Shown here: one piece after another, positions 8,821 through 10,257 of the stretch
Layout of the letters: every line of letters begins with the position of its first letter
Position numbering within the stretch: position 1 is the first letter of the stretch
NCBI RefSeq assembly: GCF_050920415.1
Contig: NZ_CP169309.1
DNA from: Escherichia coli
GTDB lineage: Bacteria > Pseudomonadota > Gammaproteobacteria > Enterobacterales > Enterobacteriaceae
DNA length: 64,000 bases
Direction: 5' to 3' (one strand)
Made by a program: the position numbers and the translations under genes
The notes under the pieces: model-generated
The model's input: only the letters and a program-made list of their open reading frames with translations
Database searches by the model: none
Told to the model about the DNA's origin: nothing

Positions 8821-10257
8821 TTATTGGCTTAACAGACCGTTTTTACGTGCCTGCTCTTCCCACTGCGGGATCACCGTTTTGATAAAGTCCTGCTTCTCAG
8901 CCTTGATTTGTTCCATGTTCAGGCCAATGGCCTGCTGGGCTTTCTCTTTGGTTGAGATATCCGGGATCTGGATTTCATGGGTGATGCCTTTGGTCGCCAG
9001 CAGGCGCGCCAGTTTGGTGCGCGCATCCGCCGCTTTATCCATCGCCGTACCGAGCATCCTCAGACCTTCTTCCGGTGCGTGCATATGAATGCCGTGGGAA
9101 GCGATCGCCAGATCCCAACGCCACTGAGCATGACGGATATCGTCCTGAATCGGTTTCATTTCGGCTTCCGTCGCGCCTGCATCCAGCGCCGCTTTCGCTT
9201 CGAAGTGAGCGTGAACCAGTTGATCTTCAACCTTGATTTTCAGGTCGTTAATCGACTGCTTACGTTCCGCGACCACTTTTTGCAGGGCAGCTTTGTCCTG
9301 GGTATGGCAGTTCGCACAAGTCTGGGCGAAGTTATCAAACGGATTACCAATTTTATGGTCGGTGTAGAGTTTGCCTTCAGCGTTCTGCACTTTTGGCATA
9401 TGGCAGTCGATACAGGTCACGTTGTTTTTGCCGTGAATGCCCACTGTCCAGGTTTCATATTCCGGGTGCTGCGCTTTCAGCATTGGCGTTTTCGACAGGG
9501 AGTTAGTCCAGTCAGAGAAGGCAATTTTGTCGTAATACTGCTCCATATTTTCGACTTTCATGCCGTCATCCCACGGGAATTTAACGGCTTTGTTTTTGCC
9601 ATCGAAGTAATACTCCACATGGCACTGACCGCAAACCATCGATTGCTGGTCGAAGCGTCCGGCTTTCTCAAAAGGTTTACCAATGGCTTCCATCGCGCGA
9701 GCCGCATACGGACGGGAAAGGGTTAACTCCGGTTTGCCTTTGGCGAACTCTGGTGAGGCAGTGTTATGGCAATCGGCACAACCTAAGTTGTTGACGATTT
9801 CCGGGCCGCCGCGCGCCCATTTACCGTGGAAGTAGCCATCTTCGCCGTCTTTCTGGATCAGACGCGCCACATCCGGGCTTTTACAACTCCAGCATGCCAT
9901 CGGTAGCGGACCATCTTCAGCGTTTTTCGGCGCACCGGTACGCAGGGTTTCACGAACATCGGTTACCGCAAAGGCATGTCCGCGCGGCTTGTTGTAATCG
10001 CGCGAGAAAGGATACCCCGCCCACAGAATCACCAGTCGTGGATCTTCCGCCAGGGCGTCAACACGCTCTGACTGTTCCGAGGTGGCTTTCCAGGAGAGAT
10101 ATTGATCGGGATGCTGCGGAGCGAAGGTTTCATTCTTCGCTTCCACGGTTACAGGTTTCGTGGGAGCGGCCGTTTGTTCAGCGTGAACAGAAGTGAAAAA
10201 GAAAAAAGGAATCAACAAGCTGAAGATACGGCGTGCGTTTATTTTTATCCTTGTCAT
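8821..10257 (-). CDS. nrfA: Cytochrome c552 nitrite reductase NrfA
   Basis: 478-aa product starting [12 protein letters not shown]; four CXXCH motifs plus active-site CWSCK motif. Confidence 0.95.

Follow-up and report, generated by a model that had tools for sequence, protein, structure and literature searches.

The window analysed here, a 64,000-nucleotide stretch of Escherichia coli DNA, almost certainly carries a standard, intact nrfABCDEFG operon on the minus strand, with an FNR- and NarL/NarP-dependent promoter, as judged from the sequence. Both the operon and the reading given for it are already known, published biology. Every defining feature that can be tested in the sequence is present, so that this copy is an ordinary member of the known nrf system rather than a variant of it. 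This textbook respiratory operon is thus present in full and apparently functional, and can serve as an annotation anchor; its function is extrapolated from near-identity to the K-12 operon, with the biochemistry taken from the E. coli K-12 literature. The start of nrfE, a modest matter, is the sole point of the operon that possibly merits a small experiment.

Composition and integrity of the nrf operon

Positions 8821-10257 correspond exactly to the nrfA coding sequence on the minus strand, for which the first-pass annotation had given no strand; it runs from the ATG at 10257 to the TAA at 8823-8821 and encodes 478 amino acids with no internal stop. By megablast, this stretch is found at ≥95% identity in 5415 of 5426 complete E. 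coli genomes, where it is always annotated as nrfA, and the only 100% match among them is strain MFDS1022581. Positions 1-20257 of the window are identical to that strain at every base, and its annotation lists nrfA, nrfB, nrfC, nrfD, nrfE, nrfF and nrfG in order on one strand, with acs upstream and divergent and gltP downstream on the nrf strand. The seven co-directional genes follow the FNR and NarL/NarP promoter in the order A to G, from 10257 down to 3882. The lyase genes nrfE, nrfF and nrfG do lie downstream of nrfA, as had been claimed, downstream on the minus strand meaning lower coordinates:

8821-10257, minus strand: nrfA, pentahaem cytochrome c552 nitrite reductase, 478 aa, signal peptide at residues 1-26
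8210-8776, minus strand: nrfB, pentahaem electron donor to NrfA, 188 aa, five CXXCH motifs
7542-8213, minus strand: nrfC, Fe-S subunit, 223 aa, TIGR03149
6589-7545, minus strand: nrfD, integral membrane quinol-oxidising subunit, 318 aa, TIGR03148
4851-6569, minus strand: nrfE, CcmF-like haem lyase subunit, 572 aa if the CTG at 6569-6567 is the start
4475-4858, minus strand: nrfF, CcmH-N-like subunit with CPQC, 127 aa, TIGR03147
3882-4478, minus strand: nrfG, TPR subunit binding NrfA, 198 aa, NF007692

Translated at the annotated coordinates, none of the seven genes contains an internal stop. In a profile search against NCBIfam, which provides a curated cut-off for each family, all seven products scored above their own cut-offs, with matches extending end to end. 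The earlier description of the seven-gene module as complete and intact accordingly stands outright for six genes, and for nrfE only if its translation starts at CTG.

The genes are tightly packed. All four overlaps listed by the first-pass annotation are real: nrfB/nrfC, nrfC/nrfD and nrfF/nrfG share the 4-nt sequence ATGA, and nrfE/nrfF share 8 nt (ATGAATAA). The two junctions absent from that annotation are gaps, of 44 nt between nrfA and nrfB and of 19 nt between nrfD and nrfE. Shine-Dalgarno sequences (AAGGAG, GGAGGTGA and GGAGGA) precede each downstream start inside the preceding gene, and together with the ATGA-type overlaps they would couple translation of B-C-D and of E-F-G. The nrfA-nrfB spacer contains one structured element:

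8795-8814, minus strand: G+C-rich stem (8 base pairs) capped by a GCAA loop; the sequence behind it is rich in A and lacks a U tract

This stem folds at -18.1 kcal/mol (z = -2.98) and could stabilise the mRNA or cause partial termination, in either case favouring NrfA over the products encoded downstream.

The K-12 operon (b4070-b4076) has the same gene order, lengths, overlaps and promoter sites, the same CWSCK and four CXXCH motifs in NrfA and the same five CXXCH motifs in NrfB. Nucleotide identity per gene is 95.3-98.9%, and the proteins differ by 31 amino-acid substitutions in total: A33T and A272V in NrfA, D34G and R36C in NrfB, Q215H in NrfD, 15 in NrfE, 6 in NrfF and 5 in NrfG. In addition, the nrfA leader of the window has a 1-nt deletion, and nrfE is 20 codons shorter in the K-12 record. 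Divergence from K-12 is lower in nrfA-D (6589-10257; 97.4-98.9% nucleotide identity, 5 amino-acid changes) than in nrfE, nrfF and nrfG (3882-6569; 95.3-96.3%, 26 changes), and cysteines 206, 275 and 468 of K-12 NrfE are Ser or Arg in the window.

NrfA, its electron donors and the haem lyase

The atypical CWSCK motif and the four CXXCH motifs previously reported for NrfA are confirmed by the motif count in the translated ORF, in the same sequence context as quoted. CWSCK occupies residues 122-126, and the CXXCH motifs are CADCH (160), CGQCH (209), CIDCH (282) and CANCH (314). All ten cysteines of the protein fall within these five motifs, and none of 20,000 shuffles of NrfA contained more than two such motifs.

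9880-9894, minus strand: CWSCK codons 122-126, predicted haem-1 attachment site with Lys126 as proximal ligand

NrfA matches the E. coli cytochrome c552 structures 1GU6 and 2RDZ over residues 27-478. The alignment with characterised NrfA, which the first-pass annotation had proposed as a check, covers the whole mature protein in 1GU6, with CWSCK opposite the same motif and only two substitutions (A33T and A272V). Since the 1GU6 chain begins at NrfA residue 27, a signal peptide of 26 residues is implied. Residues R106, K126, E215, Y216, K261, Q263 and H264 are all present; we take R106, Y216 and H264 to be the active-site Arg, Tyr and His, and E215, K261 and Q263 to be among the Ca2+-site residues of 1GU6. 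The protein scores 871.8 bits on NF008339 (cut-off 595), and a second family model in the NF008339/TIGR03152 test gives 824.4 bits against 692.5. Given its 99.6% identity to the characterised E. coli enzyme, NrfA is predicted to reduce nitrite to ammonium.

The five CXXCH motifs attributed to NrfB were likewise counted in the translation (CLDCH, CTNCH, CMSCH, CASCH and CVDCH); the protein scores 306.4 bits on NF008659 (cut-off 184) and matches the E. coli structure 2OZY (E = 1.4e-111). NrfC (TIGR03149, 418.7 bits, cut-off 377.6) is identical to K-12 in amino-acid sequence, and the product of the adjoining nrfD scores 467 bits on TIGR03148 (cut-off 347.6). The two NrfB substitutions relative to K-12, in codons 34 and 36 (8669-8677, minus strand), lie close together, and R36C creates an eleventh, unpaired cysteine near the mature periplasmic N-terminus, outside every CXXCH motif.

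Among the lyase proteins, NrfE scores 1156.9 bits on NF007691 (cut-off 394), with residues 2-572 aligned and residue 2 at profile position 1, and has WGGWWFWDPVEN as its WWD motif, located at residue 238; precomputed Pfam assignments of close NrfE homologues comprise PF01578 and PF16327. NrfF (TIGR03147, 208.6 bits, cut-off 159.2) has RCPQC at residue 44, and NrfG (NF007692, 397.1 bits, cut-off 306) matches a solved E. coli structure, 2E2E (E = 2.6e-103).

Together, these proteins are expected to operate as follows. NrfA would be exported through its Sec signal peptide, and the general Ccm system, whose genes lie outside the window, would attach four haems at the CXXCH motifs. The fifth, catalytic haem would be attached at CWSCK with Lys126 as the proximal ligand, a step that should require the Ccm paralogues of the operon itself, with NrfE as a CcmF-like lyase bearing a WWD domain, NrfF as a CcmH-like protein bearing a CPQC thiol-redox motif and NrfG as a TPR protein that would dock on NrfA. 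NrfB would deliver electrons to NrfA, with NrfCD as the presumptive membrane quinol dehydrogenase.

The first-pass annotation had called nrfE, nrfF and nrfG a specialised haem lyase for the CXXCK site. This is published for E. coli, at least as two reviews recount the work of Eaves et al. (1998): NrfEFG are needed for the haem at CXXCK, Ccm attaches the four CXXCH haems and, when NrfEFG are missing, these four are attached and the CXXCK haem is not (PMC3601427, PMC12285233). The window products all score above the corresponding family cut-offs. In the same reviews, NrfE, NrfF and NrfG are described as paralogues of CcmF, N-terminal CcmH and CcmI (or C-terminal CcmH), respectively, and the TPR repeats of NrfG as binding the NrfA C-terminus. 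However, NrfF has been reported to be non-essential (Stevens et al., 2011, PMC3601427), and the term 'NrfEFG lyase' therefore slightly overstates what is proven for each subunit.

Dispensability of NrfF is also one of the grounds on which NrfEFG might be regarded as not strictly dedicated to CXXCK, the general Ccm system being able to serve instead. Only 18 of 55 nrfA-containing species have nrfEFG within the operon (PMC3601427), and Shewanella oneidensis, which lacks nrfEFG, matures a CXXCK NrfA through CcmF and CcmI (PMC12285233, a 2025 review). For the operon at hand we consider this improbable, given the missing CXXCK haem of E. coli devoid of NrfEFG as the reviews relate it, their statement that Shewanella CcmI cannot stand in for E. 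coli NrfG or vice versa (PMC3601427, PMC12285233) and the identity to K-12 of the C-terminus of the window NrfA, the docking region for NrfG. Still harder to credit is that the operon has decayed, with at least one nrf pseudogene and a CWSCK enzyme that is not matured. The absence of ATG, GTG and TTG upstream of the first transmembrane helix of nrfE would fit such decay, as would the larger number of amino-acid changes relative to K-12 in the lyase genes than in the structural genes (26 versus 5), but the seven genes are free of internal stops and frameshifts, their profile matches run end to end above the cut-offs, and the CTG arrangement does not represent damage to this strain, since K-12 and all relatives examined have it as their normal state.

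Two known systems provide further points of comparison. NrfE shares with System I CcmF its architecture, the WWD motif and an N-terminal PE-x-G helix, whereas NrfF shares the CXXC motif of CcmH, and NrfG the TPR part of CcmH/CcmI. Unlike the general CXXCH lyase CcmF/CcmH, NrfE-G are paralogues located in the nrf operon, with NrfE reaching its 1156.9 bits on an NrfE-specific model, and according to the reviews' account they serve CXXCK rather than CXXCH in E. coli (PMC3601427, PMC12285233). The NrfHA type of Wolinella succinogenes has a homologous NrfA with a CXXCK active-site haem (1FS7, E = 3e-131) but differs in its donor, NrfH in place of NrfB/CD, and in its unrelated System II lyase, NrfI; neither nrfH nor nrfI is present at the nrf locus of the window by annotation and profile search.

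Fusions of NrfE and NrfF occur among database records (P0069, P0086, P0003 and similar), none of them in the window, and may be real or artefacts of annotation or sequencing. Many Citrobacter and Salmonella records annotate a 737-aa fusion whose linker (…GRPDKAFTPPSGK…) resembles the translation of a REP element lying between the two genes. The 665-aa fusions of E. coli are scattered, mostly in single-sequence clusters, and fit a frameshift at the 8-nt nrfE/nrfF overlap.

The start codon of nrfE

We consider it likely that nrfE is translated from a conserved, non-canonical CTG at 6569-6567, set by a strong Shine-Dalgarno sequence just after the nrfD stop. Full-length nrfE has no ATG, GTG or TTG ahead of the first transmembrane helix. 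The CTG is located 19 nt beyond the nrfD stop and is preceded by the following element:

6574-6579, minus strand: Shine-Dalgarno sequence GAGGTG, 4 nt upstream of the nrfE CTG

Annotations of this start disagree. In the identical strain MFDS1022581, RefSeq (PGAP) places it at 6569, codon CTG, yielding 572 aa, and PGAP already annotates the long NrfE in thousands of E. coli, Salmonella and Citrobacter genomes represented in the protein database. The first canonical start in the ORF list is a TTG at 6533 (560 aa), and in the K-12 reference record the start is a GTG at 6509, 20 codons beyond the CTG (552 aa). A literature search found no paper discussing the nrfE start codon.

That NrfE instead begins at the TTG or at the GTG, with the upstream 12-20 codons forming an untranslated spacer, seems to us unlikely. 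The K-12 RefSeq record does annotate the GTG, gene callers that disallow CTG return products of 540-560 aa, and CTG is a poor initiator in E. coli. Nevertheless, the 20 upstream codons evolve like coding sequence, with mainly synonymous changes near the CTG in the 11 genome-derived junctions. They encode a conserved PE(V/A/I)GFLALLLSLGVN that matches the N-terminus of CcmF proteins, which begin M-(x)-PE-I-G, the motif found at NrfE residues 6-9; consistently, positions 1-2 of the NrfE profiles fall on residue 2 or 5 of the long form. Residues 1-30 constitute the first hydrophobic segment, which a start at codon 21 deletes (Kyte-Doolittle value falling from 1.9 to 0.76). Furthermore, neither alternative codon is conserved: other strains and species have CTG or CTA in place of TTG13, and the Enterobacter sp. 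isolate and metagenome contig L108 have CTG in place of GTG21.

By contrast, the CTG and a Shine-Dalgarno sequence before it are invariant in all 35 junctions examined, which come from Escherichia, Salmonella, Citrobacter, an Enterobacter sp. isolate and metagenome contigs without assignment; in 34 of the 35 the Shine-Dalgarno sequence lies 4-5 nt ahead of the CTG, which also speaks against a downstream start. The set (loci L002-L007, L083-L088 and L090-L157) comprises 11 genome-derived junctions, from five E. coli strains including the window, E. albertii, Salmonella, three Citrobacter species and the Enterobacter sp. isolate, and 24 metagenome junctions, which were counted by reading the output of a scan whose pattern excluded codon 1. 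The 24 show at least five spacer architectures, all with CTG 2-4 nt after GAGGTG or GGTGAT; a GGTGAT-type Shine-Dalgarno sequence occupies the same position in Salmonella, Citrobacter, the Enterobacter sp. isolate and other metagenome contigs. In the contig scan, the matches listed were mostly CcmF paralogues, with nrfE orthologues only at L003-L007, and Salmonella was reached through a protein search and contig look-ups. In Salmonella and two Citrobacter species, an in-frame TGA two codons upstream leaves the CTG as the only near-cognate option for a start. In more distant relatives, the position of the CTG is taken by GTG or TTG-ATG, which again argues against a downstream start; C. sedlakii shows a TTG three codons upstream.

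A fusion of nrfD and nrfE by frameshift or read-through was considered and rejected, because the distance from the nrfD stop to the CTG (19 nt in Escherichia, 8 nt in Salmonella and Citrobacter, other values in metagenome contigs) and the relative frame vary by genus, while the spacing between the Shine-Dalgarno sequence and the CTG is constant.

Retention of the Shine-Dalgarno sequence together with a CTG, when one substitution could turn the latter into TTG, GTG or ATG, suggests that selection has favoured a very low output of the lyase, coupled to nrfD, compared with that of the reductase. If the CTG is the true start, the K-12 NrfE model (552 aa in UniProt and EcoCyc) is 20 residues short and lacks the first transmembrane helix, and nrfE would be a conserved, naturally selected CTG-initiated enterobacterial gene. 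It would then offer a convenient case for studying how near-cognate starts and translational coupling determine the amount of a maturation factor relative to that of its substrate.

Promoter, leader and operon ends

The FNR site, the NarL/NarP site and the whole core promoter are identical to those of K-12. We take the FNR site to be centred at about -41.5 and the NarL/NarP site at about -74.5 of the nrf promoter. The corresponding features of the window are the following:

10416-10431, minus strand: NarL/NarP 7-2-7 site TAACTCTAAAGTGGTA, read from the sequence
10384-10397, minus strand: FNR site TTGATTAAAGACAA, read from the sequence
10349, minus strand: putative pnrf transcription start, from the numbering of PMC5434802

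The centre of the FNR site and the NarL/NarP site upstream of it are 33 bp apart, which fits the published layout of pnrf, an FNR-dependent promoter stimulated by NarL/NarP (Godfrey et al., 2017, PMC5434802). In that numbering, the third base of nrfA codon 3 (AGG) is +102, which places the nrfA ATG at +94 and the transcription start near 10349. The GGA motif over the nrfA start codon, described as a CsrA target in the same paper, is present here (ATGACAAGGATA). An EHEC-type improved -10 element was rejected, the promoter being of the K-12 type by virtue of its identical core; the TATACT hexamer published for the EHEC-type -10 had no unambiguous placement on the promoter sequence of the window.

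The promoter region also harbours an intact 18-codon ORF, MHLQLIKDNIHSVVICYT, known as ytcB (b4821) in K-12, on the nrfA strand (10353-10409, minus strand). Because ytcB spans the FNR site and the core promoter of pnrf, the coding sequence and the promoter constrain each other.

Folded whole, the nrfA leader is not significantly structured (z = -0.42), although it includes an 8-bp hairpin, CGCCATTG-CAA-CAATGGCG (10277-10305). As GTTTTTATTG follows on the plus strand, this hairpin resembles an intrinsic terminator that would act on transcripts running antisense to nrfA towards acs. At the other end of the operon, a terminator scan of 3400-10700 identified no minus-strand intrinsic terminator between nrfG and gltP, and the 106 nt spanning the nrfG stop and the region just downstream have no significant fold (z = -0.75).

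Elsewhere in the window, Rfam matches at the gathering threshold correspond to the sraL sRNA (19982-20122), a lysine riboswitch (61856-62052), STnc430 (59812-59961) and three REP-derived naRNA4 elements (2041-2111, 12657-12728 and 47903-47973), all of which are expected E. coli chromosomal features.
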